Numbered from the stretch's first letter, positions 15,004 to 59,126 are shown. The stretch: 64,000 nucleotides of DNA from Myxococcota bacterium (GCA_039028615.1 JBCCHT010000054.1:20696-84695), one strand, 5' to 3'. Notes: generated by a model not told the origin, from the letters alone. Numbers and translations are program-made.

Positions 15004-18000
15004 CTACGGCGCCGCGATCTCCACCACCTCGAGCTTGCCGAGTGAAATCAGAGCCAATGCATCGAGCACGGACATCTCGAGATGGCCTGATGTCGCGGTC
15101 TTGCGTCCCCACGTGGGATCGATTTCATGCCATGTCACACCGTCGTGAAATCCGACCCACGCGTGGGCGACCATCTCGTCGTCGGAGGCCGCCATGCCGC
15201 TGCGCATCTCGGCCGGAATGTCGAGGGCCCGCAGCAGGGTCACGGTGAGCCCGGCGTACTCGGTGCAATCGCCTCGGCCCGCCTCGAGGATCTCCACCCC
15301 GCTGAGCACCCGCGGCGTGACCTCGTAGGAGATCCGTTCGTGCACCCACTGCGAGACCAGCTCCGCCGCGTCGACGGCCGAGGTGCCCTCGGGGACGATC
15401 GAACGGGCGAGCTCGACGATGCGCGCGTCTTCGCTGCTGTACTCGTCGGTGGCCTTGGTCAGGCGCGCGAGCTCGTCCTTGCCCAGCGGCACGGGGGCAG
15501 CGGAAGCCGCGACGGGCTCGACGGTGAGCCGCACCCGGGTGGGCCCGAGCACCTCGACCGCGGTCCGCGGAGAGTCGACCAGGGTGCCGCGCGCAAAGGC
15601 CTCGGCGTCCGGCACCTCGAAGGTGTAGCGGAGCTTGCCCTCGAGTTCCTCGAAACGAACCCGCCGGGGCAGCGACGCCGCATTGCGGACCTCTTTGGTG
15701 GCGAGCCAGTCGTCGATGACCCGGCTGTGATCACCCGCCTCGCGCAGCCGCACGCCCACGTGGCCCTCGATCACCGCGAGCCCGGTGGCGAGGATCCAGT
15801 CGGCCTCGACCTCCAGCTCGGTGAAGATGTTGAAGATTGGTGCCACCCCGCGCATGACCATCTTCTCCTCGAGCGGCAAGCCGGCCAAGCCCGGGAGGCG
15901 CTCGGCGATGGCCGCCCCGTCGAAGGAGCCGTAGCCGACCCGCAGCTGCTCGCGCGACGCGGCCGGGGGCGGAGGACCATTGGCGGCCTGATCGACGAGC
16001 GTGCAGTCGCCCACGAACAGGAAGTCGGCCCGCTCGCGATAACAAAGGCCTCCGTGACGACGGGCTTCGCTCTTGCCCGGCGGCGTCTTGGCCTTGCGCA
16101 GGGCCTTGCGAAGCGGCGCATCCAGGGGCGTGACCCCGACCCAGCGCCGCCACAGGTGGTCGCCGTCTTCGAGGTACCAGCCGAACGCCACGCCGCGGGC
16201 CTGGGCGAACAAGGGGAGCGGAGGCACCCGAGTCGCGTCGGAGCCCGTGGCCTTCAGAGGGTCGACCTCGATGGCGGTCTCGCTGAAGCGGCCGAGCCCG
16301 TGGGCCACGGTGGTCAGTGCGCCCGGAGGCAGCTGGGACAGCGCGGGGCCGATGTCGTTGACCCCCGTCGCCTCTTCAAGTGCCGCCGCGTACCGGAAGT
16401 GAAGGCCACTCTCGTCGAGGACCACCTCGATGGACGCCCCGCCGGGTGCCAGAGACCAGGCGTCACCGACCGCCACCGCCTGCAGAGCCGCGCCTTCTTT
16501 CCACTTGGCGGTCAGGCGCTGGAACTCGGGTGAATCGGCCAGCGCGGGGCCCGGCACGCGACGCAAGACCCGACGCATGTCGCGATCGGTCGCGAACACC
16601 CACAGACGATCGCCCGTGAACAGGTAGCGCTCGGAGTCGATGCCGATGCGCGAAGTCTTGCCGTCGACGATCGAGTAGACCTCGATGGGCATCCCGTTGC
16701 GCTCGATGGTCCGACGCGTGCGCTCGATGGCGTTGGGGGCCACGACCTCCGCTTCATCGTCGTCCTCGACGCCCAACGAAGCGATGAAGTGACCGGGCTC
16801 GTCATCGTCGTCGTCGCCCTCGTCGCTTTCGTCCTCGTCGTCTTCGTCGGGATAGACCACGAAGTGCAGCACGGCCGGCAACACGCTCATGACCACGGGC
16901 ACGATCCCCGCGGTCGTCGCCAGGGTGAGCGGCAGCGAGACACCGGCATCTTCGTCGTACTTGCGCTGGCCGAGCACGGTGAGCAGCGCGTCGCGATCGG
17001 TGACCCGGGCAGAGCACACCCAGCCCCCGCCTTTGGCCGCACGAGCGCACTCGATGGGCTCGGACACGTCGAGGCCGCCCGTCTGCGACAGCGCGGCGAA
17101 GCCCCCCGCCCGTAGCCCCATCGCGGTCAGGTCGGAGATTCGCTGATCGACCGCCTCGTTTTCCGAGGTCAGGCGACCCGCCACGTCGGCGACCGTGCTG
17201 GCAAACAGGCCCGGCGCGGCGAGGCGAGCGAAGATCCAGTCTTCACCGGGAAGCAGCTCCGCGAGCTCGGCCTCGCGCAGCTCGGCTTCCTCCCGGCGCT
17301 CGAAGCCGTACAGCTCGTTGCGAGACACCCACCGAAGGGCTCGATCGCTCGGCTCGGCGACGTCGACCCCGGCCTGGACCTTCGTCGCTTGGTCGTGGTC
17401 GGCGGCAATCCCTTGCAGCGTCTCGCGGAAGGTCTCGAGGAGCTCGACGTCGTCGTCGTCCTCGACGCGACCGGGCAGGGCCAACAGCAGCGGCTGGTCG
17501 TCGGCATCCATGAACCACGCCAGGGCCACCGCGACCGACCGCATGTCTCGGCGTGCGCGAGCGGTGCTGGGCGACGGGGCCGACTCGAGGTAGCGCCGCA
17601 GCCTCAGCCGGTCGTTGGTCCGACCCCATCCCGCCATGACGCTGGCCGCCTCGGCGACGAGCTCGGACCCCTCGGCCATCGCGACCTCGAGGACCTCATC
17701 GGTGGCCAGCTCGGGGCGCAGCCGCACCCCGGCCCAGGCCAGCCGCCGGTCACGGGCATCCTTGCTGGCGAGCAACCGTGCCGCCAGCGTCCGTCCGTGT
17801 GACAGGGGCAACGCGCCGAGCACCTCGACCAGGCCCCGCGGGGGCTTGTCGGTGTGGATCAAGTAGTCGGGGGCCGCAATGGCGTGCTTGGCGGGGGTGC
17901 TCAGCAGCGTGCGGACGTCGGCATCCGCCCGGCTGGCGTGGGTCTGAACCGCCTGCACCCCAAACTCGTGCGCCCGCGGGTCTTCATCGAGCAATGCGAC

Positions 18001-21000: not shown

Positions 21001-22425
21001 GTCGGACAGCAACGACGGATGAAAATGCCGCGTGCGACCGGCGAGCACGATCCCGCCCTGCCCGGGCCACGGCAACACCTCGTCGCACGCCTCGCCGACG
21101 CGCCCTCGCTCGCGACAGATCCCCTCCCATGCCTGCTGCCACTGCCGCGACGTGCCGAAGTGCTCGCGGGCCCACTGGCGCGCCGCGTCGGACACCTCTT
21201 CGTCGAAGATCGTCGCCCACTGCATCTTCCGCATCACGGGGCTCTGCCGCTGCTCGGCGAGGCGACGACGAGCGTCCGTCACCAGCCCCTGGAGGGCGGG
21301 GTAGTCGGGCTGGGCGAACACCAGCAGCCAATGGTCCACGCTGACCGAAGCGACCTGCTGCTCGGCGTGCCAGTGCTCGAACTCGGCCGTCGCCCCGCGC
21401 CGCACGGCGCTCATCGCCACCAGCTGATCGCGAACCCGGGCCACCTCGGCATCGCCCGCCGCGGACAGCGGCTCCAGCACGGCCAGCGCATCGCCCACGA
21501 GCCCGGCGCGGACCCACTCGGACGCCAGCGCCAGGCGAAGCGCGTGCGACTTGGGCTTTGCGCGCAGGCGCACGCTCAGCCGAGCCATGCGCGACTGATT
21601 GACGTAGGTCTGCGCCAGATCGACGGTGAACAGATCTTCGAAGAGCAAAGGATCGTCGGACAGGGTGCCCGCCGCCCGCTCGTCGACCGCGAGCGCGACG
21701 ATGGCCGCCCCCAGATGCCACGGGTCGGCCTCGAGCACCGCCGCGCTGCGATGACGCAGCTCCTCGGGCGCCGCACCGTGCTCGACCGCGTGCCGCAGCG
21801 CGCCGACGTGGACCTGGGGAAACCGTGGATCGGGCGGCAGTGCGTCCAGGCCCAGCTCCATCGCCCCGTCGGGCACCAACGGCCAAAAGCTGGCGATGGC
21901 CTGGCGCGCCGCGAGGTCGTCCCCGACCTGCTCGAGCAGCCGCGCGTAGTCCCACGTCATGGGACCGTCGTCCATGTCTGTGAGCGCCCGGCGAAGCGCC
22001 CGCTGGTGCCGCTGCGGGTTGGGGTGCGCCATGATCCCGCGGACCATCAGCTCGGGGTCGTCGGCTCGCTTGGCCCAGCGCATCGCATCCTTGGCGGCAC
22101 GGGTCAGCTCGCGTCGTGACTGCTTCTGCGCCTCGGCGTCGCCGTACAGCCGGCTGAACCACCACGCCGACTCCGCCCGCCGCAGGTGCAGGGCCATCGC
22201 CTCCGCCGCCCGGTAGGGACGGCCCAGGTCCCACTCGGCCCGCGCCAGCGCCCGCGCATGCTCGAGCGGATCGTCGTCGGCGTCGGGCACCTGGAGCGCG
22301 GCCCGAGCCTCGAGCTGACCCGATCGCAGAGGCGTGAGCGCGCCCTGCCGAGCCGACGCACACCCCACCGCAATGAAGGGCAGGGCCAAGAAGATCACCA
22401 AGGCAAATCGAAACGAGCGAAGCAT
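15004..22425 (-). CDS. Giant (2473 aa) lipoprotein with helical-repeat regions and C-terminal transglutaminase-like domain
   Basis: Lipobox AVGC; Ala/Leu/Arg-rich TPR/HEAT-like helices; C-terminal GRGDCTEYA...HAWV...IDPTW triad. Confidence 0.8.
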   Translation of the reverse strand: MLRSFRFALVIFLALPFIAVGCASARQGALTPLRSGQLEARAALQVPDADDDPLEHARALARAEWDLGRPYRAAEAMALHLRRAESAWWFSRLYGDAEAQKQSRRELTRAAKDAMRWAKRADDPELMVRGIMAHPNPQRHQRALRRALTDMDDGPMTWDYARLLEQVGDDLAARQAIASFWPLVPDGAMELGLDALPPDPRFPQVHVGALRHAVEHGAAPEELRHRSAAVLEADPWHLGAAIVALAVDERAAGTLSDDPLLFEDLFTVDLAQTYVNQSRMARLSVRLRAKPKSHALRLALASEWVRAGLVGDALAVLEPLSAAGDAEVARVRDQLVAMSAVRRGATAEFEHWHAEQQVASVSVDHWLLVFAQPDYPALQGLVTDARRRLAEQRQSPVMRKMQWATIFDEEVSDAARQWAREHFGTSRQWQQAWEGICRERGRVGEACDEVLPWPGQGGIVLAGRTRHFHPSLLSDIDQLTTADYHAIGPVLEQYVGTVTEASPEVLAALFRFRLAQGRYDDARSLLETSGELMAPSERTWAWLVIDDVESGSVTFDEANRWYAPVFTHDPDAPENTEDDEPPVSRLEHYVWGMTAGRRAQHQRALEWLMPLLDELPDEVMVDGLAQAALAAHLAGDPRLEALQQRLLAVDRHGASLALLQARIARDAGLPEVERGFLTHGLRWSPDDTTLYRELLATFAREGAPPPEAAMAFIAERAPPYDYLHEDLRRGVRDGTLSSFAAVQQALRGINGTEQDAWQVGASMLRQFPNLASRAVAWGEKNIREAESLEEAKQWAVATFELQQTAGVRHRWALRRQLWAALVADRSLSGLALARQRDPERRYRPLSDGDSLVLLLRARQAGEIDDQLAWDLWRWANDNDAPDADARVVAIIAEPPAGTLLQIFACNELTAADDEGPAYDACEKAFASHPSSASVAVNQIYLGLNDDDEAAGDRRLRAAVASGAHRASFIDEPEMALTSTLSQPWHHNYAVWLGRQGRHEESADHWLQAFAFGLNEDAGRFHAVEQVTWRGAHIRGLQTHATQNLRVRQQRRSWYALLEGRPTMARHYAEAARTMIDEEEGASNRAQLIEADERYHRARWAEADLHAGRITTEGIAQVAALFDSNDPTAAKRLHGEFPESSLVALARIQVYRELGENHRALPIAGGLAEGSTDPLAAATVIPLLADAERLDEAKAMFEAADAANPGDDLLRYVDASEFVTGARTEIPAWTRDPARYDARVAQVTSAQIAAFAPMRVTAEDRAAEIFVPGSWKPSDISPLRYRDGEGGRVLVLTNPRDSRCQGEICAADLLEQLAGSGRTLQWMRETTLVGLPATQAMFTSPEEVLVAWVLPSGGRVFTLVMAATPAQFDRLRPVLAMFRDGFRPLDGVRSAFAARSLRTAGAKLVDGWRLRARREQATVREPGVCPVPETLAALKHDHQRAELLIDLWLGMPDADARLALLECTGPREAASRRLALVALLDEDPRAHEFGVQAVQTHASRADADVRTLLSTPAKHAIAAPDYLIHTDKPPRGLVEVLGALPLSHGRTLAARLLASKDARDRRLAWAGVRLRPELATDEVLEVAMAEGSELVAEAASVMAGWGRTNDRLRLRRYLESAPSPSTARARRDMRSVAVALAWFMDADDQPLLLALPGRVEDDDDVELLETFRETLQGIAADHDQATKVQAGVDVAEPSDRALRWVSRNELYGFERREEAELREAELAELLPGEDWIFARLAAPGLFASTVADVAGRLTSENEAVDQRISDLTAMGLRAGGFAALSQTGGLDVSEPIECARAAKGGGWVCSARVTDRDALLTVLGQRKYDEDAGVSLPLTLATTAGIVPVVMSVLPAVLHFVVYPDEDDEDESDEGDDDDDEPGHFIASLGVEDDDEAEVVAPNAIERTRRTIERNGMPIEVYSIVDGKTSRIGIDSERYLFTGDRLWVFATDRDMRRVLRRVPGPALADSPEFQRLTAKWKEGAALQAVAVGDAWSLAPGGASIEVVLDESGLHFRYAAALEEATGVNDIGPALSQLPPGALTTVAHGLGRFSETAIEVDPLKATGSDATRVPPLPLFAQARGVAFGWYLEDGDHLWRRWVGVTPLDAPLRKALRKAKTPPGKSEARRHGGLCYRERADFLFVGDCTLVDQAANGPPPPAASREQLRVGYGSFDGAAIAERLPGLAGLPLEEKMVMRGVAPIFNIFTELEVEADWILATGLAVIEGHVGVRLREAGDHSRVIDDWLATKEVRNAASLPRRVRFEELEGKLRYTFEVPDAEAFARGTLVDSPRTAVEVLGPTRVRLTVEPVAASAAPVPLGKDELARLTKATDEYSSEDARIVELARSIVPEGTSAVDAAELVSQWVHERISYEVTPRVLSGVEILEAGRGDCTEYAGLTVTLLRALDIPAEMRSGMAASDDEMVAHAWVGFHDGVTWHEIDPTWGRKTATSGHLEMSVLDALALISLGKLEVVEIAAP

Positions 22426-22571
22426 CGAGGGGGGGTCCAGTTATCGCATTCGTGCCGTGGGGGCGCACGTGGTCCGAATGAGGCCCACCGGTCGGCACGG
22501 CCGGTCGAGGGGAAGCCCTCCCCACCCATAGGCCCCGAGCCCTTCAAATTGGACACCATCGTTTCGGTAGA

Positions 22572-24641
22572 GTGCACCGAGTCATCCCGTTGACCGCTCG
22601 GCCCCAGCTCCATCCTCGCGCCCGACGGTGCATCGTCTTGCGCGGTGCCAGGTCGGACACGAAACAGGCGGCCGAAGCCGTGCTTGCCGACCTCGATCCC
22701 GCCCGCGTCGTGTGGATTGGCCTCAACGACGAGAGTGCCCCTGCGCCGACCCACGAGCCCCGCCGCGTTCGCACGCTGCTCGGCCAGTCCTTCGATGCCG
22801 TGGTGCTGGATGGACACGACGGCCTGGACCCCGACGTGCTCGGCCAGTGCCAGGGCTTGGTGTGGGGCGGCGGCGGGCTCGTGCTGCGCCTGCCTCCCGC
22901 CACCGAGCTCCCCCGACCACAGACCCGCGCCCACCTGGCCGCTCACCCCTACCGAGCCGCGGACGTCGGCGTTCGGTTTCATCATCTCGTCGAGCGAGCC
23001 CTGCAGCGAGCCCCCACGGCCGAAGTCGTCACCGTACCGTCCTCACCCCCGCCCGAGCCCTTGGGCCCTCCACCGCGGCACATCGAAGGCACCGACGATC
23101 AGCGTCGCGTCGTCGATGCCCTGCACCACGCCTGGTCGTCCCCCGAGCCCACCCGCACCGTAGTGCTGGCCGACCGTGGCCGCGGCAAGTCCAGCGCCCT
23201 GGGACTCGCCCTCGCCAGCCTCGCCGACTACCCCCAGCGCACCATCGCCGTCACCGCAGCCCACCCCGACGCCGCGGCCGAAGTCTTCCGCTTCGCCCCC
23301 GACACCCACGCCCAGTTCGTCCCTCTGTCCAAACTCGTCGGTGGCGACGTCTCCCCCGATCTCATCGTGGTGGACGAGGCCGCGCAGCTCCCCGTCCCCA
23401 TGCTGCGGCGCCTGGTCGAAGTGCACCCGCGAGCCCACCTCGCCTTTGCCACCACCACCCACGGCTACGAAGGCACTGGCCGCGGCTTCGTGCTCCGCTT
23501 CCTGACCTGGCTCGAGACCCGCGAGCCCCCCGTCCAACGCCTCTCGCTCCGCACCCCCATTCGCTGGAGCGACGACGACCCCCTCGAGCGCCTCGTCTTC
23601 GACGCCCTGCTGCTCGATGCCGACCTCGCCCCCTTGCCCGCCGACCTGCTCCGGGCCCCCGACGCCGAGCTACGAACCGAACGACTCGACCGCAACGCCC
23701 TGCTCACCGACGAACCGAGCCTCCGCGAACTCTTCGGCCTCCTCGTCCACGCCCACTATCGAACCACCCCCACCGACCTCCACCGCCTGCTCGACGCCCC
23801 CAACCTCGCCGTGCACGTCGTGCGCTGGCGCGACCACATCGTCGCCGCCACCATCGTCGCCGAAGAGGGCGCCCTGTCCCCCGCGCAATGCCAATCCATG
23901 GCCCGCGGCCAGATCCGCATCCGGGCCCACGCCTTGCCCGACGCCCTCGTCGCCCACCTCGGCCACCCCGAAGCCGGCGAGCTGCCCATGCTCCGCAGCG
24001 TCCGCATCGCCACCCACCCCAAGCTACGACGCCAGCGACTCGCCACCCGCCTCGTCGAGCACGTCCACGCCCAGGCCACCCCCGCCCTGTTCGGCACCCT
24101 CTTCGGCGCCACCCCCTCGCTGCTCGCCTTCCGCCGCTCGCTCGGCTACCGACTCGTCCGCATCAGCGCCTCCCGAGGCGCCCGAACCGGCGAGCCCTCC
24201 GTCCTCATGCTCCGCCCCACCACCCCCCGAGCCGAGGCCCTCGTAAACACCCTCCGAGCCGAGCTCGCCCGCGACCTCCCCCGCCAGCTCGAGCTCATGC
24301 AAGCCGACCGAGAAACCCTCCTCGACCCCGCCCTCATCACCGCCCTCCACCACGACCTCCCCACCCCCGCCCCCTTGTCCCCCCAACAATGCGATGCCCT
24401 CGTCCGCACCTACGCCCCCGGCCCCCGCACCTTCGAATCCATCGCCCTCGCCCTCCAACAGTTCATCAAAGCCAACCCCCACCGCCTCACCCGCCTCCCC
24501 CCCTCCGACCAAGCCCTCATCCAATCCCGAGTCCTCGCCGCCCAAAGCTGGCACCACGCCACCCAATCCGCCGCCCTCCCCAGCATCCCCGCCGCCATGC
24601 GAGCCCTCCGCCGAGCCACCCGCCACCTCCTCGACCCCTAG
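22572..24641 (+). CDS. tmcA: tRNA(Met) cytidine acetyltransferase TmcA
   Basis: ADRGRGKSSALG, VVDEAAQLP, TTHGYEGTGRGF, PIRWSDDDPLE, LVHAHYRTTPTDL, GNAT RSVRIATHP. Confidence 0.9.
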   Translation: MHRVIPLTARPQLHPRARRCIVLRGARSDTKQAAEAVLADLDPARVVWIGLNDESAPAPTHEPRRVRTLLGQSFDAVVLDGHDGLDPDVLGQCQGLVWGGGGLVLRLPPATELPRPQTRAHLAAHPYRAADVGVRFHHLVERALQRAPTAEVVTVPSSPPPEPLGPPPRHIEGTDDQRRVVDALHHAWSSPEPTRTVVLADRGRGKSSALGLALASLADYPQRTIAVTAAHPDAAAEVFRFAPDTHAQFVPLSKLVGGDVSPDLIVVDEAAQLPVPMLRRLVEVHPRAHLAFATTTHGYEGTGRGFVLRFLTWLETREPPVQRLSLRTPIRWSDDDPLERLVFDALLLDADLAPLPADLLRAPDAELRTERLDRNALLTDEPSLRELFGLLVHAHYRTTPTDLHRLLDAPNLAVHVVRWRDHIVAATIVAEEGALSPAQCQSMARGQIRIRAHALPDALVAHLGHPEAGELPMLRSVRIATHPKLRRQRLATRLVEHVHAQATPALFGTLFGATPSLLAFRRSLGYRLVRISASRGARTGEPSVLMLRPTTPRAEALVNTLRAELARDLPRQLELMQADRETLLDPALITALHHDLPTPAPLSPQQCDALVRTYAPGPRTFESIALALQQFIKANPHRLTRLPPSDQALIQSRVLAAQSWHHATQSAALPSIPAAMRALRRATRHLLDP

Positions 24642-24760
24642 GATCCCCTCCCCACAACGCCCAACCCAAGAGCGCCCACAAAAAACGGAGCTCCAACTCT
24701 CCCGTTAGCAACCCCCGGCAAACCTCAACCGAAAACGCCTGCCCGCAGCTCCCCCCATTG

Positions 24761-25148
24761 CCCTTCCCCAGATCGGACGGGCCCGCGCAGCACGGCAGGG
24801 GCCCACTCGCGCGCAGCGGCGACTAATAGCCCCTACAAGCACCCAGCTCCAGCATCGCCGACGAGCACGAGTGGGAAGGAGGCCGAGCGTCAGCAGGCGC
24901 CCGTCCGTCCCCGCCCGAAGCTCATACAACCTCTCGACCCAGAGCCCACAACCAAAACCGCCCGCCCGCAGCTCCCCCCACTGCCCTTCCCCAGATCGGA
25001 CGGGCCCGCGCAGCACGGCAGGGGCCCACTCGCGCGCAGCGGCGACTATGAGCCCCTACAAGCACCCAGCTACAACATCGCCGACGAGCACGAGTGGGAA
25101 GGAGGCCGAGCGTCAGCAGGCGCCCGTCCGTCCCCGCCCGAAGCTCAT
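24761..25148 (-). repeat. Hairpin-element array A: two 165-bp cores (24761-24925, 24984-25148), period 223 bp
   Basis: Near-identical direct repeats cccttccccagatcggacgggccc...cgcccgaagctcat. Nested inverted repeats pair best on the minus (G-rich) strand. Confidence 0.95.
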
Positions 25149-25307
25149 ACAACCTCTCGACCCAGAGCCCACAACCTAATGCACCACCCACCCAAAGCTC
25201 ATAACCCAAACGACGAAACCATCTCCCCGAGAACCCCACCCAACCAAAAGAGAAGCCGACCGCCCAAAGACGCCCGGCCCCCTTTCAGTCAACCCCGAGC
25301 CCCGCCC

Positions 25308-26300
25308 TCACTGCTCCACACACATAAAGTAGAGCCCAAACCAATTCGCCCCACAACTCCGCGTATTGAGCTCGAGAAAATCCTCGACCCCCGTCCCCCG
25401 ACCATACGTCGCCGTAGCCCCCGAACTCGCCGAACTCCACCCAATACAAATGTTGTCCCCCAAGTTCGTCCAATCATCCGCCATCCCAGTAATCGTATCG
25501 AGGATCGGACAAGTCATCCCACACACCATGTCCTCGACCGGATTCTCCAACGGCATCGGCGCCCCCGCCCGAACCCCGAGCAGCGCCGTCCCATCGGTGA
25601 TCCACACGATCTCCCCGTCGTCGTTCGTATAGGCGGTGTACGGCTGCAAGACCCAGTCGTTCTGCCCATCACCCACCCACGGCGTCAACGAAGCCCGCCG
25701 CACGCTCGCGAACGAGAACATCGCCGCATACCCATCCGGGCAGGTGCTATCGGCATACGCGACCGGGTCGGTCCCGAAGTTCCCGTTCGGCAACGCATTG
25801 CCGAAGGTGATGTGCCGCTCTTCGATGACCCCCGAGCAGTCCGGCGCACACGCCCCCAGCGCGAGGGCATTGGCATTCCCTTCGTCGCAGCCCTCGGCCG
25901 GCCCCGGGTCCCCGTCGCCGCACACGTTGAGCTCACAGTTCGCGTTACAGGCCTGGCCGGGCCCGTTGTTCTCGCCGTCGTCGCAGATCTCCTGGAGCTC
26001 GGCATCGATGACACCGTCGCCACAGAAGGGATCCGGCTCACCCGTGCTCGTGTCGGCGCTCGACGTCTCGATGTCGCCCGTGGGCTCGCCCGAGGTCTGC
26101 GAGCCCGTGCCCGGCTCGCCGCCCGTGGTCGGCCCCGGAGGCGTGGCATCGGTGGCAACGGGGTCGGCCGAGTCGCTGCTTCCCCCGGTACCGCTACTCG
26201 CCGCTACGTCGGTCTCTCCCTCCGCATCGTCGGGGTTGAAGCACGCCGCAGGCGCGAGAGACAGAGCAACAAGGGCGGTACGACGTAGGGAAGTAAGCAT
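25308..26300 (-). CDS. Lipoprotein with Cys-rich repeats and C-terminal DUF1554-like domain
   Basis: Lipobox PAAC; CGDG repeats; ADSTC...RRASLTPWVGDGQNDWVLQPYTAY resembles DUF1554. Confidence 0.75.
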   Translation of the reverse strand: MLTSLRRTALVALSLAPAACFNPDDAEGETDVAASSGTGGSSDSADPVATDATPPGPTTGGEPGTGSQTSGEPTGDIETSSADTSTGEPDPFCGDGVIDAELQEICDDGENNGPGQACNANCELNVCGDGDPGPAEGCDEGNANALALGACAPDCSGVIEERHITFGNALPNGNFGTDPVAYADSTCPDGYAAMFSFASVRRASLTPWVGDGQNDWVLQPYTAYTNDDGEIVWITDGTALLGVRAGAPMPLENPVEDMVCGMTCPILDTITGMADDWTNLGDNICIGWSSASSGATATYGRGTGVEDFLELNTRSCGANWFGLYFMCVEQ

Positions 26301-26928
26301 GAGAACGAATACGGAGTAGCACGAGCCCGACCACCGCTCTAGTACGATCGTGCTACGAACCGTCCCCCAATACACGGGATGTCTCACCGACGGCGCATGC
26401 GGTCATCGAGACTCCCACGGCCCACCAAACAGCGATCGAAGGACACGCAGGACACGAACACGGATCGATGACCGACATGGTCAATTCATGCGCAAACGAT
26501 GCCCCATGGCCGTTTGACGCCGACGCCTCCACTCGCGATCGCGCACCGTCTGCCCGGCCCGCGCACACGTCGTCACGCCCTTCGAAACGCGAGCGCGACC
26601 GCCCGACGACTTCGAATGGCCGCGGTGTTTCGACGCGAACGATCGAGGCATTCTGCCGCGCCCGAACACGAACCGCCGTCGGTCTCCGTGCAGTGTCACA
26701 GTGCAGGTGAAGCCGAGCGATCCAACTCGACCGAGCGATGCCGCTCGACTCCACGCCAACGACGACGCACCTCGGAGCTTTGCTCCATTGTCTCCACGAA
26801 GGCTCGCCCCGCGGCTGAACGAACAAAACGCCAGACCGCGACACCTATGAGACGCCGCGGGGCGCCCATGCACGAAATCCACGTCGCATCGATTGACGAT
26901 CACCAGCCCGCCGTGAAACGGTCGCACG

Positions 26929-27471
26929 GTGTTTGGCTTGATTGTTTGGATGACGGCAGTGGCGATGAACGTCTCGGCGCCGTCGAAGTGCGAAGTGGAG
27001 GTGGCCGGGATGCCGGTGTCCGTCATGGGCCACCACGACCTGATGGCGGGCTACCATCAATACCCGGTCGAACGACGCGTCCAGGTGGAGTTGGATTCGG
27101 ACGCAAAGTGGCTGCGGGTGAGAGGGCCTCGTTACGCGGGCTCGCGACGGGTCGAGCCGGGCGAGTGCCGCCCGGGGGCAGTGCTGCGCGTGGACGTGAA
27201 GCCCAAGCCCGCTCGCATCGACTTCCCGTGTGCGCCCCCCGATCTCACCGTCGCGTGCACCCACTGTCCCGGGCTGTCGGAGCCGCGCATCTTCACGGCC
27301 AAGGACTTTCCTCCGCTGCGGATGTCGTCGTTCAGCGAGACGGTGGAGGTGGTGTTCCGTGCCCCCGGCTACCGCAAACAAACCCGAACCTTCCGCGTGC
27401 ATCCGGGGCACAACAAAGTCGAGGTCTCGCTCGAGCCCCTGCCCGGCACGGAACCCACGCACGGGCACTAG
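26929..27471 (+). CDS. Secreted hypothetical protein, PEGA-like beta domains
   Basis: Hydrophobic N-terminus; VRGPRYAG and FRAPGYRKQTRTFRVHPG PEGA-like strands. Confidence 0.55.
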   Translation: MFGLIVWMTAVAMNVSAPSKCEVEVAGMPVSVMGHHDLMAGYHQYPVERRVQVELDSDAKWLRVRGPRYAGSRRVEPGECRPGAVLRVDVKPKPARIDFPCAPPDLTVACTHCPGLSEPRIFTAKDFPPLRMSSFSETVEVVFRAPGYRKQTRTFRVHPGHNKVEVSLEPLPGTEPTHGH

Positions 27472-51739: not shown

Positions 51740-52921
51740 ATGGAAGAGCAAGACAATCCAGAGACAGCGCCGAGCATTCTGCAATTCCCGGGCAAGACGG
51801 TCGTGCCGCCTCCGCCTGAATTCGGCACCGTACTCGACGCTCCACCGCCGCGTCCCACCCCTCAGCCAACGCCCCAGGCGGAACCCTCGCGAGGGACGAG
51901 CCCGTGGATCTACGGCGGCTTGGTGTTCGCAATCGTAGCGGGCGGAATTGGGTTCGTGCTCGGCGGTCTGGGCGGCGATGACGAAGGCCAGGCATCGAAG
52001 CAGGCCGCGGATGCGAGCGCAGCGCCCAAGGCTTCCACGCAAGCCCCGGCCAGCAACGCGGGCGATGACGGTGCGGCCAAGGTCGCCGCCGCTCCGCCCG
52101 CAAAGGAGTCACCGTGCCCCGAAGGCATGGTGAAGATCGACGGCGGCAAGTTCTTCATGGGGACCGATCGTGATGCCGGGATCTTGCGGATGGCTCGTCC
52201 CGCTCACCAGGTCGAGGTGGGGCCCTACTGCATGGACATCTACGAGGTGCGGGTCGACGACTATCGCAGCTGCTCCGACAAGGGCGAGTGCAAGCGGGCG
52301 TTTCGCGAGAGCAAGTGGCCCGGTTCCGACGAGAGCGAGGTCGCGTGGAACGACCTGTGCAACGAGTCGTACGACGATCGCGGTCAGCATCCCGTCAACT
52401 GCGTCACCTGGGAGCAGTCGAAGCACTACTGCGAGCAACGAGGGGCCCGGCTGCCCACCGAGAGCGAGTGGGAGTATGCGGCGCGAGGGTCCGATGGGCG
52501 CGTCTACCCGTGGGGTGACGAGGCTCCAGATCAGCGGCACATGAACGGGTGCGGCACGGAGTGTCGGGACTGGCGGGCAGACAAAGAGCTGTCGGCGAAC
52601 CCGGCGGTGTTGCACGAGACGAACGATCGGTATCCGGGCACGGCTCCGGTGGGGAGCTTTCCCGCTGGGAAGACCCAGTGGGGGCTGCACGACATTGCGG
52701 GCAATGTGTTCGAGTGGACGGCGGATGCGTTCGAGCCCTATCCGGGGGCGGAGAAGGAGCCCGAGAAGGATGGGGGGACGCCGGCGCGGCGGGTGATTCG
52801 TGGGGGGGCGTTCAATAGCTTCTTTGCGGATTTTGCGGATCCGGCGTTGCGGTTTCCTCAGGTGGAGACGGCGCATACGCATGGGATTGGGTTTCGGTGT
52901 GCGGCGGATGTGCGGGAGTGA
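51740..52921 (+). CDS. Membrane-anchored FGE-sulfatase (SUMF1) domain protein
   Basis: CPEGMVKIDGGKFFMG, HPVNCVTW, RLPTESEWEYAARG, GLHDIAGNVFEW, RVIRGG, GFRCA. Confidence 0.9.
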   Translation: MEEQDNPETAPSILQFPGKTVVPPPPEFGTVLDAPPPRPTPQPTPQAEPSRGTSPWIYGGLVFAIVAGGIGFVLGGLGGDDEGQASKQAADASAAPKASTQAPASNAGDDGAAKVAAAPPAKESPCPEGMVKIDGGKFFMGTDRDAGILRMARPAHQVEVGPYCMDIYEVRVDDYRSCSDKGECKRAFRESKWPGSDESEVAWNDLCNESYDDRGQHPVNCVTWEQSKHYCEQRGARLPTESEWEYAARGSDGRVYPWGDEAPDQRHMNGCGTECRDWRADKELSANPAVLHETNDRYPGTAPVGSFPAGKTQWGLHDIAGNVFEWTADAFEPYPGAEKEPEKDGGTPARRVIRGGAFNSFFADFADPALRFPQVETAHTHGIGFRCAADVRE

Positions 52922-53035
52922 GGGCTTTGAGCGGCCTCTGTGTTGGTGAGAGTTTCGGGCGGAGATGAGCGGGTGCCTGCTGGGAGCGGGCGCCTGCTGG
53001 GCCCGGTGGTCAGTGGCTCGTTTGGGCTGGTGGGT

Positions 53036-53683
53036 ATGAGCTTTGGGCGGAGACGGACGGGCGCCTGCTGACGCTCGGCCTCCTTCCCACTCGTGCTCGT
53101 CGGCGATGCCTTACCTGGGTGCTTGTAGAAACTCTTAGTCGCCGCTGCGCGCGAGTGGGCCCCTGCCGTGCTGCGCGGGCCCGTCCGAGCTGGGGAATGG
53201 CACCGGTTGGAGCGGTGAGCGGCAGGAGAAACTCTGGTTGGTTCGGGGCTGGAGCTGTGGTTCGACGAAGCGGCGTTTGAGCTTTGGGCGGAGACGGACG
53301 GGCGCCTGCTGACGCTCGGCCTCCTTCCCACTCGTGCTCGTCGGCGATGCCTTAGCTGGGTGCTTGTAGAAACTCGTAGTCGCCGCTGCGCGCGAGTGGG
53401 CCCCTGCCGTGCTGCGCGGGCCCGTCCGAGCTGGGGAATGGCAATGTTTGGAGCGGTGAGCCGCGAGAAGTGTCGGTGCTCGATCGGTTGATTGCGGGTG
53501 TTCGTCGGGGTGGCGAGTATGAGCTTTGGGCGGAGACGGACGGGCGCCTGCTGACGCTCGGCCCCCTTCCCACTCGTGCTCGTCGGCGATGTTGCAGCTG
53601 AGTGCTTGTAGAAACTCATCGTCGCCGCTGCGCGCGAGTGGGCCCCTGCCGTGCTGCGCGGGCCCGTCCGAGCTGGGGAACGG
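53036..53683 (+). repeat. Hairpin-element array B: three 165-bp cores (53036-53200, 53277-53441, 53519-53683), period 241-242 bp
   Basis: Reverse complement of the array A/C unit. Each core is followed by tggagcggtgagc; decayed partial copy at ~52948-52982. Confidence 0.95.
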
Positions 53684-53930
53684 TCTTGGGTGGAGCGGTG
53701 AGCGGGCTGGGTCGGGGTGGTGGCGGAGGTTGTTCTGCGCCTCGGCGTGGGTGTACCGAACGAATTAAAGTACCTAGGTAACATTAGGTTTGCAAATGGG
53801 GGTCGGCGCGGGCGGGGGTGGGCGAGGGGTGGACTTGCTCATCTGAGAAACCATGATACCTGTGTACCAAGATAACAACGGGATGAGCGGGCGTGGTTTC
53901 GGCGGCTCATCGAGATGACGGACGAAAACG

Positions 53931-54644
53931 GTGAAAAAGATCGGGTTTTTCGAGCTGGTGGTGTCCGGCGTGGGCGCTTCGTTACTGATGGGCGGGTGTG
54001 GCACTACGCATGCCGAGTCTCATTCCGAACGAACGCCTCATGCTGGCCAGCGTGGGGTGCATGGCGAGCGGGGGGCGGGTCACTCGGCGCCTGCGGGTCA
54101 TGGCGGGCATGGTGGGCACGAGGGGCATGGGGATGCTCATGCGGTGGTCGGTGAGCCTCGGGTGGATGCGGAGGGGCGTTTTCCGACGGTGGGGTTCGAG
54201 CGGCGGGTGGAGCTGGAGTTGCCGTTTGCGGCGACGCAGGTGTGTCCGCTGTTCGAGCCGAGCGGGCGCAATCTGCTGTACGAGTGGTGGGAGCCGACGG
54301 TGCTTCGTCCGGCGCGAGGGCAAACGCTCGAGGGGCTGGTCACGGTGTCCACGCTGCACGAGTCGCACGAGGTCTTTCTGGTCGTGACCGAGCACGAGCC
54401 GGAGCGTGGGCACCTGCAGTACATGGTGCTGTGGGACGACTTCGAGCTTCAGCGCGTGGACATCACGTGCGTCGAGGGGGCCTCGAGCGCGTCGACGAAG
54501 GTCGAGTGGCTCGAGCGCAACGCGGGGCTGCACGACGAGGGGGTGTCGATGGTCTCGTCGTTCGTCATGGGTGGCGCGCTCGATCGGGTGGTCGAGCGCT
54601 ACGGGGACAACGTCGAAAAGACGCTGCGAACGGCGGATCGATGA
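53931..54644 (+). CDS. His-rich putative lipoprotein with SRPBCC/START-like domain
   Basis: MGGC lipobox-like, His/Gly-rich segment, then VCPLFEP...W.P...EHEPERGHLQY pattern. Confidence 0.65.
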   Translation: MKKIGFFELVVSGVGASLLMGGCGTTHAESHSERTPHAGQRGVHGERGAGHSAPAGHGGHGGHEGHGDAHAVVGEPRVDAEGRFPTVGFERRVELELPFAATQVCPLFEPSGRNLLYEWWEPTVLRPARGQTLEGLVTVSTLHESHEVFLVVTEHEPERGHLQYMVLWDDFELQRVDITCVEGASSASTKVEWLERNAGLHDEGVSMVSSFVMGGALDRVVERYGDNVEKTLRTADR

Positions 54645-55979: not shown

Positions 55980-56708
55980 TCATAGACGACGAGGCGGTCG
56001 CTCGCGGGCGACCGAGATCGTGTCGCGAAGGCCGGCCGGGGGCAGATCGTCGGGCCCGAACTCGAGCGAGAGCTCCTGCCCGGGCTCGACCGTGCGCCGG
56101 GTCCAGATCCCCGCTCCGGTCAGGAAATCGAAGCGCTCCGACTCGGAAGAGCCCGCGGGAAAGTTGTACGCGAAGCCGGACGGCGACTCGATCTTGATCA
56201 AGGCCGTCGCCGCCTCCTCGGGGACCGTCGTCTGCAGGGTGCGTCGCCCGTCGCTGGACTCGACCAGAGCCTCGTCCACGTCGGCGTCGTCGATGAACCC
56301 GCCCTTGCCGTCCTTGTACGAGACCCACGCCCGAACCTCGCGCCCGGGCTCGATCCCGTGCAGATCGGTCCCCAGACGGCCATCGATGACCACTGGTCGA
56401 TCCCCCACGATGAACGCCCCCAGCTTCGTCGCATGGTCCACCCCGGCCAAGCGCATCCAGTACCAACCGGGCTTCAGCTCCGACAGTGCGAAGCACCCGT
56501 CGTCATCGAGGTGCACGATGTGATCGCCGCCACGGCGGTGCCCGATCCACACCACCCCCGCCTTCATCGGGTGCCCGTCGTGCCCACGAATGCACCCCTT
56601 GATCGCCGCCCCCGCACTCCGTCGCCCCGCCGCGTGCACCGAGCGATCCACCGTCCCTGCCATGAGCAGAGCACCACCGACGACCATTGTCCTGCGTCCA
56701 AGCGCCAT
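55980..56708 (-). CDS. Secreted protein with carboxypeptidase-regulatory-like domain
   Basis: GRRTMVVGG Tat-like signal; IKGCIRGHDGHP...DDDGCFALSELKPGWY. Confidence 0.6.
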   Translation of the reverse strand: MALGRRTMVVGGALLMAGTVDRSVHAAGRRSAGAAIKGCIRGHDGHPMKAGVVWIGHRRGGDHIVHLDDDGCFALSELKPGWYWMRLAGVDHATKLGAFIVGDRPVVIDGRLGTDLHGIEPGREVRAWVSYKDGKGGFIDDADVDEALVESSDGRRTLQTTVPEEAATALIKIESPSGFAYNFPAGSSESERFDFLTGAGIWTRRTVEPGQELSLEFGPDDLPPAGLRDTISVARERPPRRL

Positions 56709-56862
56709 GGCCCCCGGTACGATCAATTCGGCCGATGTCTTTCACCCACTCGTGTCTTTGTCCTAGCCCCGACACCGATTGCAGCCCCGACATCCCATTT
56801 GGCTCCTGAATCGCGAACCGCCCCGCACGGCACTGCGACGGCTCGTTCACAGCCCCACCCAT

Positions 56863-57780
56863 TCAGACGCGGGGCTCGAGCTCCCGCAGGTACTCCGCCT
56901 TGTCGAACACATAAGGCCCCAGCCCGTAGATCCAGTGACGGTGAAACTGCTCGAAGTCCGACCACACCACCACCTCGTCGAGCACCGTGATCCGCACCAT
57001 CAGAAACCAACACTCCACGATCCCGCAGGTGCACCCCAGCACCGTCGCCCTCCCGCGCTGCGGGTCATCCGGCGCGAGCACGAACCCCTTCGCCGCCGTA
57101 TCCCACGGCTCGTCCAGCAGCTCGCGACGAGGCAACCGCAGCCAGTCCGAGCTCATGCTCATGTAGTCCCCCGCAAAGTCACCGATGTCCTCCCGCGCCT
57201 CCCCATCCGCCACCCGAAGCTCGATCTCCCGATCCACGAAGGGCCGCTCCACCCGACGAACCAACTCGACGAGCGCCTCCCCATTGATCGAGATCTCGCA
57301 AGGCACATTCCCTTCCCCCCCCGGCCACGACTCACCCCCAGGGTTGTCCGTCAGCCTCAACCGATCCCTGCGCGAAGCCGGCCGCCCCCGCGCCAACGCT
57401 TCGATCTCCGCCCGCGTGGGCGCAGCCAACCCCCGACGCACCGCCACCGGCCCCTCCACCCCCGGACCATCCACCCGACCCGACATCAACCAAGGCTTCC
57501 CCGGCCGCCCCGGCACCCACCCCTTCTCCAGCCCACGCCGAATCCACCCCGCCACCGCCCCGGGCGTCACCGCCCTCCCCCTCAACCGAGCCTCATTCGA
57601 CGGATGATGCTGCCCCAGCTCCACCAACAAACTGGCTCCCCCACCATCCTCGACCGCCACCGCCAACACCAACCGAGTCCGCCCACTCCTCTGCTCCACC
57701 GTAGGCCGACGACGAACCCGCCACCGATACCCCACCCCATCGACCTCGATCCGCCGCGACCCCTTCGCCGGCAAACTCAC
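56863..57780 (-). CDS. Hypothetical two-domain protein
   Basis: N-domain KGSRRIEVDGVGYRWRVRRRPT...GW.P; C-domain LGCTCGIVECW...VVWSDF. GTG start inferred. Confidence 0.7.
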   Translation of the reverse strand: MSLPAKGSRRIEVDGVGYRWRVRRRPTVEQRSGRTRLVLAVAVEDGGGASLLVELGQHHPSNEARLRGRAVTPGAVAGWIRRGLEKGWVPGRPGKPWLMSGRVDGPGVEGPVAVRRGLAAPTRAEIEALARGRPASRRDRLRLTDNPGGESWPGGEGNVPCEISINGEALVELVRRVERPFVDREIELRVADGEAREDIGDFAGDYMSMSSDWLRLPRRELLDEPWDTAAKGFVLAPDDPQRGRATVLGCTCGIVECWFLMVRITVLDEVVVWSDFEQFHRHWIYGLGPYVFDKAEYLRELEPRV

Positions 57781-57938
57781 CGCCCCCACCCCGCCTTCCC
57801 ACAACCCAACGCCGTCATCCTCCCTCAGCATCCGCGCCCCCCGACCACCCCGTCAACCATCCGCCCCCACCCCACGAGGAGCCCTCAAACCTCCAGTCTC
57901 TCAACCCACCGCCGACCCCCTCACCACTCCACCCAAGC

Positions 57939-58344
57939 CCCTTCCCCAGATCGAACAAGCCCGCGCAACACGGCAGAGCCCCACTCGCCCGCAGCGGCGA
58001 CGACCTGCTTCTACAAGCACCCAGCTAACACATCGCCGACGAGCACGAGTGGGAAGGAGGCCGAGCGTCAGCAGGCGCCCGTCCGCCTCCGCCCGAAGCT
58101 CATACTCGCTGCCCGAGGAGCACCCGCAGTCAACCGAACGAGCAAAACCAGGCCCCGCGTCTCACCGCTCCACCCAAGACCCTTCCCCAACACGGACGGG
58201 CCCGCGCAGCACGGCAGAGTCCCACTCGCCCGCAGCGGCGACGACCTGCTTCTACAAGCACCCAGCTAATACATCGCCGACGAGCACGAGTGGGAAGGAG
58301 GCCGAGCGTCAGCAGGCGCCCGTCCGTCCCCGCCCGAAGCTCAT
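57939..58344 (-). repeat. Hairpin-element array C: two 165-bp cores (57939-58103, 58180-58344), period 241 bp
   Basis: Same unit and orientation as array A; the linker is homologous to the second linker of array B. Confidence 0.95.
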
Positions 58345-58403
58345 ACCGCGACCCACCGCCCGTAACTCATACCGACACCCACCGCCGAAAACCCAAGGGC
58401 CCT

Positions 58404-59126
58404 CTACTCAATCCCCAACGCCGCCAAATCCGCCTCCGCCTGCGGCTGCCACCCCTGATTCGCCCGCGGACTCGCCGGACTCGGATGCAACATCGCCCCC
58501 ACCGCAATCGACTCATCCAAAACCCCCCGAGCCCTCTTCGCCGCAAACGCCCCAATCCCCACCACGATCCGCGGCTCCAACACCTCCATCGTCTCCCGCA
58601 ACGCCCGATTACAAGCCTCGAACAACGGCTCCCTCTCCGCCTTCGGCAGCTTGTCCGGCGTCCTGTTCCGCCCGCTCTCCTCGAGAAACGCCAGCGGACA
58701 ATAGTTCACGATGAAGAACCGCGAGAAGAAGCTCCGCGCCGTCCCGTAACGACTCTTCGCCCACCCCCAAAGCCGCGTCCCGCTGACCTCCGACCGCGTG
58801 CACGCAAACCCATCGATCGGCCGCTTCGGATGCTCCGGCTTCGGCTTCCCCACCTTCCCTTCGATCTTCACGAAGTCCCGCGCATACGAGACCTCGCCGA
58901 ATGGAATCCCCGTCTGCGCCATCCCGAAGGGCCCCGGGTTCATCCCCAGCAAGATCACCCGCTTCTTCTTCTTGCCGTACCGCTCGAGGTACTGCTCGTG
59001 TGTATTCCGGGCGTAACGCAGCGGGTTGTAGACGTGCGTGACGGGAGCATCGAAGTGCAGCGCATCGACGGCTCGGCACAGGCGGCGGTTGATCCGGACC
59101 AGGTCCACGGCTGCGGACCTTAGCAA
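58404..59126 (-). CDS. SMUG1-family (family 3) uracil-DNA glycosylase
   Basis: VYNPLRYA, GMNPGPFGMAQTGIPFG, RSEVSGTRLW, NYCPL, HPSPASP. Confidence 0.92.
   Translation of the reverse strand: MLRSAAVDLVRINRRLCRAVDALHFDAPVTHVYNPLRYARNTHEQYLERYGKKKKRVILLGMNPGPFGMAQTGIPFGEVSYARDFVKIEGKVGKPKPEHPKRPIDGFACTRSEVSGTRLWGWAKSRYGTARSFFSRFFIVNYCPLAFLEESGRNRTPDKLPKAEREPLFEACNRALRETMEVLEPRIVVGIGAFAAKRARGVLDESIAVGAMLHPSPASPRANQGWQPQAEADLAALGIE

Follow-up and report, generated by a model that had tools for sequence, protein, structure and literature searches.

Bacterial repeats of the REP, BIME and REPIN types are intergenic, high-copy, hairpin-forming elements of 20-40 nucleotides (nt). They lie mostly at gene 3' ends or between convergent genes, often as inverted pairs. 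In vertebrate mitochondrial DNA one strand is depleted of C and A and enriched in T and G, graded by position, and the gradient is read as time spent single-stranded. In eukaryotes, GC skew accompanies R-loops at promoters and gene ends (R-loop-assisted termination has been proposed for the terminal skew of human genes) and at the G-rich immunoglobulin switch repeats; bidirectional asymmetries are reportedly seen at CpG islands. The mutation footprint of Pol I downstream of the ColE1 origin and nick-directed error-prone synthesis have a fixed start, one direction, strand specificity and a decay over 1-3 kb. The nearest published phenomenon to the one described below, going by the sections of PMC8256042 cited here, is that of GRINS, genetic repeats with intense nucleotide skews. 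They show local, intense and correlated GC and TA skews (G+T versus C+A). Third codon positions are affected most, the sign switches abruptly over less than 1 kb, amino acids shift (Gly/Val versus Pro/Thr/His/Gln) and transposase overlap is frequent. In the same sections they are defined as duplicated coding regions, >500 bp long and >80% identical to another region, and tied to gene conversion, and the authors declare the mechanism unknown. In the part of PMC3733652 used here, GTAG-tagged palindromic repeats are linked to Y1 transposases. Here we describe a skew zone in a 64,000-nt stretch of DNA (the window) from a Myxococcota bacterium (GCA_039028615.1, JBCCHT010000054.1:20696-84695). The zone surrounds an intergenic repeat, array A, which by its sequence is a copy of a REP-like family of oriented, predicted hairpin-forming repeats (family A; Table 1).

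The zone resembles GRINS in part. The skew criterion for GRINS is >500 bp with mean absolute GC and TA skews >0.15 (150-nt windows, 30-nt step). Over the whole zone the means are 0.367 for GC and 0.214 for TA, and for the tmcA part alone, 5' of the array, the TA value is 0.12, under the 0.15 cut-off. Third-position skew with matching amino-acid shifts is present here as well. The duplication that the cited sections require is absent: only the array matches elsewhere (≤437 nt at 83-85%), and the tmcA and DUF1554 parts on its two sides are single-copy. Unlike GRINS as described there, the skew is centred on an oriented intergenic repeat, takes its sign from the orientation of that repeat and decays with distance. 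Relative to that description, what is new is that the focus is defined, the sign follows a rule, the decay has a characteristic length and the genes affected are unique.

The analysed genome is a 12.27-Mb metagenome-assembled draft in 94 contigs. In 300-nt windows, GC skew on the + strand is -0.15 at 22800 and drops continuously until it reaches -0.60 at 24300-24599. Array A itself has values of -0.23 to -0.32; the skew is -0.48 at 25200-25499 and back to about -0.10 by 25800. AT skew reaches +0.5 around the array. Over the genome, GC skew has a mean of -0.009 and a standard deviation (SD) of 0.077 (122,255 windows of 500 nt), and only six of these windows fall below -0.5. We defined strong zones by |skew| >0.3 in the same windows and obtained 80; with 2.6 kb and a peak of -0.549, the array A zone is among the top three in length and strength, and another of the three lies in the 64,000-nt window around a further family-A array. 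The - strand of the array A zone carries six G-quadruplex-type (G4) motifs and the + strand none; the average for the window is 0.16 per kb per strand. A promoter and terminator scan of 22300-26600 gave no promoter-like site and one terminator-like site, which is not above shuffled sequence.

A first-pass annotation made from the sequence had drawn attention to this skew, and its counts per 60 nt proved exact (24481-24540, A9/C35/G8/T8; 25381-25440, A10/C32/G10/T8; control 17041-17100, A11/C21/G22/T6). It had placed the reach at 1-2 kb on either side. This is right for the tmcA side (about 1.8 kb) and too long for the other, where the skew extends about 0.5 kb. Its naming of the flanking genes also held, with TmcA domains on one side and a DUF1554 gene on the opposite strand. 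The DUF1554 gene has its final ~400 nt inside the zone and is G/T-rich there on its own strand.

The codons of tmcA drift toward the array as the same annotation had claimed. From the first to the last third of the gene, CTC rises from 11 to 32, CGA from 6 to 11, CAA from 0 to 8, CCC from 14 to 22 and GCC from 24 to 34, and CTG falls from 10 to 3, CGG from 4 to 0, CCG from 5 to 0 and GCG from 3 to 0. At fourfold-degenerate sites the third-position counts (C3/G3/A3/T3) are 21/11/2/5 in codons 1-60 and 39/0/4/0, 36/0/1/0 and 19/0/2/0 in the last three 60-codon bins. The final 150 codons hold C94/G0/A7/T0, that is, no G in 101 consecutive fourfold sites. We compared five orthologs, four from the same genus (60-63% identity) and one from another genus. 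None has a family-A core, and all five show C:G near 1:1, local skews within about ±0.19 and no comparable gradient, which is the outcome that the annotation's proposal of an array-directed process called for. The G3 fraction of tmcA is 0.16 versus 0.44-0.60 in the orthologs, and G3 falls with position (Spearman rho -0.30, p = 4e-10; orthologs |rho| ≤0.10). The upstream neighbour of tmcA is syntenic in the genomes of two of these relatives, and tmcA has therefore not moved. Amino-acid positions shift in line with the strand bias: at codon positions 1 and 2 of variable columns in the 3' half, tmcA has 85 G versus 133-149 in the orthologs and 175 C versus 130-144.

These data bear on a non-local cause, namely an assembly artefact, foreign DNA with a composition of its own, or translational codon selection. 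The source is a metagenome-assembled draft, and the tmcA gene of a genome from another genus (G008) is uniformly C3-rich. However, the open reading frames (ORFs) are intact and closest to the same-genus orthologs, and the gradient falls within one gene. A separate assembly of the source marine metagenome run (Logan contigs) agrees, matching 22000-24788 with one differing letter and 25147-27000 with none; array A itself is broken into fragments there. This metagenome is the single run listed for the DNA, and no RNA run is among the listed ones. The G008 skew is not local but of replichore type. Translational selection is excluded by the rare A-ending codons and by the mirrored effect in opposite-strand genes. 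A non-local cause is thus largely refuted, and we consider it barely credible. The G008 gene had been a candidate for a second halo and was dropped, being part of a skew of about -0.2 that spans >40 kb (L010 and L011, G008:C22:778000-817800). That skew reaches -0.4 locally and is far above the replichore-scale skew of the analysed genome.

Iterated nhmmer searches found 96 family-A cores in the genome (24, 94 and 96 matches in rounds 1-3), which group into 69 arrays of one to three cores. The consensus is predicted to form a long imperfect hairpin, and the arms vary between subfamilies with pairing kept, as judged by eye on the alignment. The tetranucleotide directly before the stem is GTAG in 64 of 81 aligned cores and GCAG in 15, the latter including all seven aligned copies of the window, whose subfamily is of the GCAG kind. 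Within 1 kb of a family-A array lie 39 of the 80 strong zones, and every one of the 39 has the sign predicted by the orientation of the copy. In the first 250 nt 3' of arrays, oriented skew is negative at 59 of 62 and below the 1st percentile of 20,000 random windows at 53.

The tail of the element might itself add to the flank skew, and we therefore repeated the test on fourfold sites of flanking genes only. The baseline is a sense skew of -0.13 for genes in element orientation and +0.13 for genes in the opposite orientation. On the 5' side, from -500 to 0, the skew is -0.75 in both gene orientations (same, C268/G38; opposite, C148/G21). On the 3' side it is -0.80 in genes of element orientation and -0.57 in opposite genes over 0-250 nt, -0.57 and -0.34 over 250-500 nt, and at baseline in both over 500-1000 nt. 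Baseline-corrected deviations are nearly equal for genes pointing toward and away from the array. The oriented genome-wide plot that the first-pass annotation had proposed thus gives the result it expected: the sign follows the element and, as it had argued from the two convergent genes, ignores gene direction.

Independence of gene direction bears on transcription-associated mutagenesis. Neighbour read-through, with or without R-loops, would strip C from the non-template strand, and the element would merely mark 3' ends. Transcription running from the 3'-flanking gene into the array would give the right sign, 35 of the 43 called genes immediately 3' of arrays are directed inward, and the long reach runs in the direction of travel. 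The RNA would be G-rich and R-loop-prone, with the six G4 motifs at array A on the displaced strand. Against this, the eight arrays whose 3' gene points away are those with the values of -0.80 and -0.57 from a baseline of -0.13, a deviation equal to that of the inward genes. At least five of these eight genes are plausible ones, reading from their translations (for example an S9 peptidase, a glutamine-synthetase-like and a DsbA-like protein). The halo starts about 500 nt inside the translated 3' end, and elsewhere the same transcription unit has no such effect or the opposite one. In ribosomal-protein genes and groEL the sense strand shows no loss of C. Transcription-associated mutagenesis predicts such loss, whereas the sense strand of tmcA gains C and genes of both directions behave alike. 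We regard read-through as improbable.

Selection on transcripts fares no better, and we hold it to be equally improbable. Under this explanation the C-rich, G-poor element-sense RNA would be a long Rho-loading site that halts read-through into convergent genes or, in mirror image, the G-rich RNA would aid R-loop-assisted termination. The excess of inward genes speaks for it, and many of these have C3-rich bodies like those of ribosomal-protein genes and groEL (sense skew -0.11 to -0.60), so that the elements lie at 3' ends of probably well-expressed genes, where termination matters. However, about 1.8 kb of the mRNA of tmcA itself is affected, with rare codons ending in A (CAA, CGA) imposed on it and amino-acid positions shifted. 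The effect falls off smoothly with distance, without a step at gene boundaries, and T3 and A3 rise at the fourfold sites nearest the arrays, which is unexpected under selection for G or C.

We followed the 5' decay, as per-array deviations, at 19 arrays that lack a partner closer than 3 kb. Negative values are found for 7/7 arrays in the bin ending at -0.5 kb (median deviation -0.75), 9/9 at -1 kb (-0.57), 11/12 at -1.5 kb (-0.46), 10/14 at -2 kb (-0.29) and 9/16 at -3 kb (-0.02). The halo is polar: it has one strand sign on both sides of an arm and decays smoothly, over about 2 kb 5' of the array and about 0.5 kb 3' of it. Farther out, 1-3 kb 3' of the arrays, there is a weak opposite shift at fourfold sites (45 of 54 arrays positive, median +0.16), of which codon selection in expressed genes accounts for part at best.

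Twofold sites indicate which bases are exchanged. Near arrays, purine-ending codons are A49/G38 against a baseline A/G of 0.19, and T/C on the element strand is 12/176 against a baseline of 0.19. The element-sense strand loses G and T, equivalent to loss of C and A on the antisense strand. The first-pass annotation had proposed loss of cytosine from one strand, by C>T and C>G. C is indeed depleted, and T replaces it at twofold sites; A is also lost, however, and direct C>G change is not needed.

Two further genes, both on the - strand, support the rule. A flavin adenine dinucleotide (FAD)-dependent gene on another contig has its 5' end facing the 5' side of a forward array and points away from it. 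With increasing distance from the array its sense C3/G3 counts are 0/30, 1/39, 5/28, 6/35, 3/33, 9/26, 10/31 and 13/23. Its 65 codons nearest the array carry T3 at 10 of 41 fourfold sites, pyrimidine-ending codons in the first 130 codons are C2/T12 versus 13/0 to 8/4 in orthologs, and amino-acid positions of the 5' half follow the strand as well, with 42 C versus 57-66. In the window, a gene of the uracil-DNA glycosylase (UDG) superfamily abuts the forward array with its 3' end; its C3/G3 counts per 60 codons are 13/15, 4/28, 1/23 and 0/29, and pyrimidine-ending codons in its 3' half are C11/T13. Extending the ortholog comparison to these genes, we found C3/G3 near 1:1 in all five FAD gene orthologs, which are without the element, and in four of five UDG orthologs.

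We propose that the bias is mutational, with a polarity that is inherent in the repeat, and give this a probability of about 50%. We infer mutation rather than selection. Each family-A copy would be a focus of strand-asymmetric substitution in which C and A are replaced on the antisense strand, with an intensity highest at the array and fading over about 0.5 kb 3' and 2 kb 5' of the element, across whatever sequence lies there. At twofold sites the outcome would be a transition (G>A or T>C on the sense strand). At fourfold sites the strong GC pressure on third codon positions (GC3) in this genome would make C the sink, so that genes become nearly purely C-ending or G-ending according to their direction. 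Less constrained amino-acid positions would drift too.

The underlying event would be a DNA transaction of repeat-fixed polarity that repeatedly exposes the antisense strand as single-stranded DNA or re-synthesises one strand with errors. One candidate is a nick in one particular strand at the GTAG-tagged hairpin, after which the gap widens and is refilled. Family-A arrays resemble the Pol I footprint at ColE1 in pattern alone, the latter being a plasmid origin or an engineered system. Another candidate is an R-loop or D-loop that starts at the array and may prime short stretches of abortive synthesis. Eukaryotic R-loop skew shares with our case a G-rich non-template strand at gene 3' ends, repeat arrays, G4 potential and strand-specific cytosine loss; here, unlike there, polarity departs from the direction of the neighbouring gene in 8 of 43 cases. 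To our knowledge, no deaminase is known for the array setting, unlike in the eukaryotic comparison. The mitochondrial gradient is genome-wide and follows one replication mode, whereas the halos here measure 2-3 kb at about 70 chromosomal sites. More speculatively, and with rather less than even confidence, oriented GTAG-tagged hairpin repeats may be fixed polar start sites of a DNA transaction that is specific to one strand and steadily recodes neighbouring single-copy genes over as much as 2 kb, and the same process may underlie the GRINS skews as set out in the cited sections.

Several results weigh against the proposed repeat-driven mutation. By composition alone, C and A loss on one strand equals G and T loss on the other, and a mutation bias looks the same as selection against sense-strand G. 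As DNA, one array A unit has a fold that does not surpass those of its shuffles (z of -0.86 for the + strand and -0.39 for the - strand). In the UDG-family gene there is no strand effect at codon positions 1 and 2, and its polarised amino-acid changes at conserved columns are nine G>A, mostly Val>Ile, and no C>T, so that the expected C>T excess is missing. The fifth UDG ortholog (G002) is skewed (C3/G3 3/30 in the last bin), and no family-A core is found in the 490 nt to its contig end. A few arms have no halo or a reversed one (C16 197463, C53 37523 and C31 113728). Gene calls come from our own GC3-based caller (6392 genes covering 72% of the genome). The first-pass annotation had named, as results that would speak against an element-directed process, a sign uncorrelated with element orientation, equally strong zones common without elements, and the same gradient in array-free orthologs; none of these was found in full, though about 20 of the 80 strong zones are without a detectable repeat, some of them low-GC islands.

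The zones without a repeat and the G002 ortholog would be accommodated by reverse causality, in which repeats insert in a fixed orientation into sites already exposed and skewed, as IS200/REP-type elements use single-stranded DNA. Several unrelated repeat families and a Y1 (HUH) transposase-like gene also sit in such zones, and GTAG adjoins the stem in most family-A cores, as it does in the Y1-linked REP families in the part of PMC3733652 used here. Yet the element-free orthologs of tmcA (5/5), the FAD gene (5/5) and the UDG gene (4/5) are unskewed, skew peaks at the 19 unpaired arrays and decays from them, and tmcA occupies its ancestral place beside a syntenic neighbour. We judge reverse causality unlikely, although of the alternatives it is the least so.

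We also counted polarised changes in tmcA: 16 G>A, no A>G and two C>T at conserved columns. We had considered this G>A excess as a direct sign of C>T on the - strand and dropped it, since the UDG-family gene on the other strand shows the same excess. The excess in both genes is a trend of this lineage and is uninformative on strand. Compared with its congeners, the lineage has a surplus of changes of the Val>Ile, Ala>Thr and Asp>Asn type (A gained at codon positions 1-2) on either gene strand. Same-genus orthologs are 60-81% identical, and silent sites are therefore saturated. A metagenome scan for closer relatives gave only homologs of 28-42% identity.

If that wider proposal on GTAG-tagged repeats and GRINS is right, zones in which an element directs a local mutation bias would be present in many bacterial genomes. 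Local mutation spectra in bacteria are usually treated as uniform save for replication and expression; here a small repeat predicts where a bias lies, on which strand and how far it reaches. The bias is strong enough to purge G from 101 consecutive fourfold sites of a housekeeping gene and to alter the amino acids that it encodes. The unexplained GRINS phenomenon gains a defined focus and polarity, making its mechanism testable. Skew zones look foreign, which matters for inferences from codon usage and of horizontal transfer, and also for gene finding in GC-rich genomes. There are also implications for the view that genes evolve under the influence of mobile repeats beside them.

Table 1. Features of the array A region, the second family-A locus of the window and other loci named in the text (window positions unless a contig, C, is given)
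Feature	Position	Strand	Remarks
Skew zone, + strand C-rich/G-poor	22900..25700		A 18%, C 47%, G 22%, T 12.5%
tmcA-type gene, 689 aa, intact, 5' of array A	22572..24641	+	Pfam NAT10_TcmA_helicase 2e-44, GNAT_acetyltr_2, TmcA_N
C/A-rich spacer, tmcA stop codon to array A	24642..24722	+	from the sequence
Array A	24723..25168	+	two tandem 223-nt units, 96% identical, each with a ~130-nt core predicted as an imperfect hairpin
C/A-rich tail 3' of array A	25169..25307	+	with third partial copy of the 17-nt unit-end motif
Convergent DUF1554 gene	25308..26387	-	likely start an internal ATG giving MLTSLRR...
Positive-skew zones around reverse array	52506..54305		peaks +0.31 and +0.34
Family-A array, 3 cores, reverse	53046..53661 (C54 73741-74356)	-	
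Negative-skew zone around forward array	56606..59005		peak -0.54
ORF, 322 aa, 5' of forward array	56863..57831	-	sense GC3 skew +0.59; no Pfam family
Family-A array, 2 cores, forward	57960..58336 (C54 78655-79031)	+	partner of the array 4.3 kb leftward
UDG-superfamily gene	58404..59126	-	3' end abutting forward array
FAD-dependent gene	C42 57624-59174	-	5' end facing 5' side of forward array, pointing away
Further repeat loci with skew zones (i)	C1 32401-36757 and 49034-50065; C28 163411-163536; C2 288236-288905		
Further repeat loci with skew zones (ii)	C53 811-1546; C3 359374; C51 81521		
Further repeat loci with skew zones (iii)	C17 201659-202859; C7 60761-61777		

The second locus of the window is an inverted pair with arms 4.3 kb apart. 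Skew is positive at its left and negative at its right and weakens toward the middle. The genes between the arms include a luciferase-like monooxygenase at 54242-55567. The 322-aa ORF 5' of the forward array gave no match in five same-genus genomes with this query. The gene most stripped of C3 beside this array encodes a protein of the uracil-DNA glycosylase superfamily, next to a footprint of cytosine loss; this may be a coincidence.

Pairs of this kind, a reverse array followed by a forward array 0.3-6.5 kb away, occur 21 times in the genome, and forward-then-reverse neighbours are never closer than 14 kb in our list of arrays. The two arms of a pair are near-identical, tails included. The centres are unique and non-homologous between loci, except for 40-120 nt adjoining the arms. 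Many family-A copies sit at contig ends.

Pairs bear on a model in which hairpin or cruciform cleavage at long inverted repeats is followed by 5'-3' resection that exposes the 3'-ended strand on each side, as in repeat-induced mutagenesis and strand-coordinated clusters in yeast. The 21 pairs fit, being positive left of the centre and negative right of it, and the near-identity of the arms is consistent with the model. The two sides of a single arm, however, share their sign, the skew of the 4.3-kb pair is most intense at the arms and weakens toward the middle, unpaired arrays have peaks too, and array A is without a partner arm. We place breaks with resection a little below the transcription-based explanations, as a doubtful cause.

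Most inverted pairs have halos on both arms, and the effect is therefore independent of fork direction. Stalling at hairpin or G4 arrays that leaves gaps on one template strand would give the observed sign, which is the classical leading-strand skew for a fork heading to the 5' side of the element, and the 2-kb reach is like the length of an Okazaki fragment. But a fork passes one way, and the halos on the two arms are of similar size. Replichore-scale skew is tiny in this genome, as the SD given above indicates, and unlike skew on that scale the zones here measure 0.5-2.6 kb and affect both arms of most pairs. Replication-fork effects are accordingly very unlikely.

Family A is REP-like in being intergenic and high-copy, lying mostly at gene 3' ends and between convergent genes, often forming inverted pairs, carrying GTAG beside the stem in most cores and sharing its genome with Y1_Tnp-like genes. 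GTAG is one of the two tetranucleotides, with CGTC, that mark stem ends in REP and REPIN elements. In size the family differs, with a core of about 130-150 nt and a unit of 223 nt against 20-40 bp, and unlike REP elements it forms 223-nt tandem arrays and pairs 0.3-6.5 kb apart with unique centres. Array A also differs from diversity-generating retroelements, whose changes are adenine-specific and templated on a variable repeat by a second copy, as the main loss is of C (or G) and there is no second copy of the skewed coding DNA; no reverse transcriptase search was made. Rfam gave no family at threshold in the window. In open-access papers and bioRxiv we found no description of flanking skew at REP elements or of repeat-centred skew halos in bacteria.

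Among 25 relatives searched, family A has 16 matches in G002, 10 in G004 and one in G001, all of the same genus, and a weak match in one other genus; the remaining 21 gave none. Copies in G004 and G002 have the same flank polarity as those described above. At one G004 locus (L021, G004:C16:63427-66568) a forward and then a reverse core lie 136 nt apart, an order unseen within 14 kb in the analysed genome, and a gradient of more than 1.2 kb (-0.26 to -0.64) lies 5' of the forward core.

The genome holds two copies, 66% identical, of a Y1_Tnp-like gene of 310 aa with an HUH-type motif (L029, G000:C13:39075-42281; G000:C8:230601-235371). Both lie between skewed gene ends, one of which is the 3' end of a tryptophanyl-tRNA synthetase-like gene (+0.57; named from its translation). 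The C13 gene is flanked by an inverted repeat of its own, 20 nt long, with one copy on the left and three on the right. This repeat has five genome matches at ≤3 substitutions, four of them at that locus; since it differs from family A, the REP-associated tyrosine transposase (RAYT) arrangement of REP systems is not reproduced for family A at this gene. The Y1-like genes have up to 21 matches in relatives, and their distribution in the genus differs from that of family A.

Halos of this type also surround other repeat families of the genome. Of 4444 genes tested, 33 have last 100 codons that flip strongly to G3, and for 25 of these a multi-copy repeat lies no more than 1.2 kb downstream. Skew zones are associated with at least three more repeat families, one pair lying directly downstream of groEL (loci in Table 1). 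A unique locus, G000:C18:17900-19700, has a G/T-rich left half and a C-rich right half, like a mirror-skew structure of another kind; a 16-nt palindrome that includes CACGTG occurs there four times, along with numerous CCACGTGG-like motifs. At G000:C49:85300-86900 there is a low-GC (~50%), G/T-rich island with a skew of +0.41 and no repeat or called gene, which is probably foreign DNA, unlike the repeat halos.

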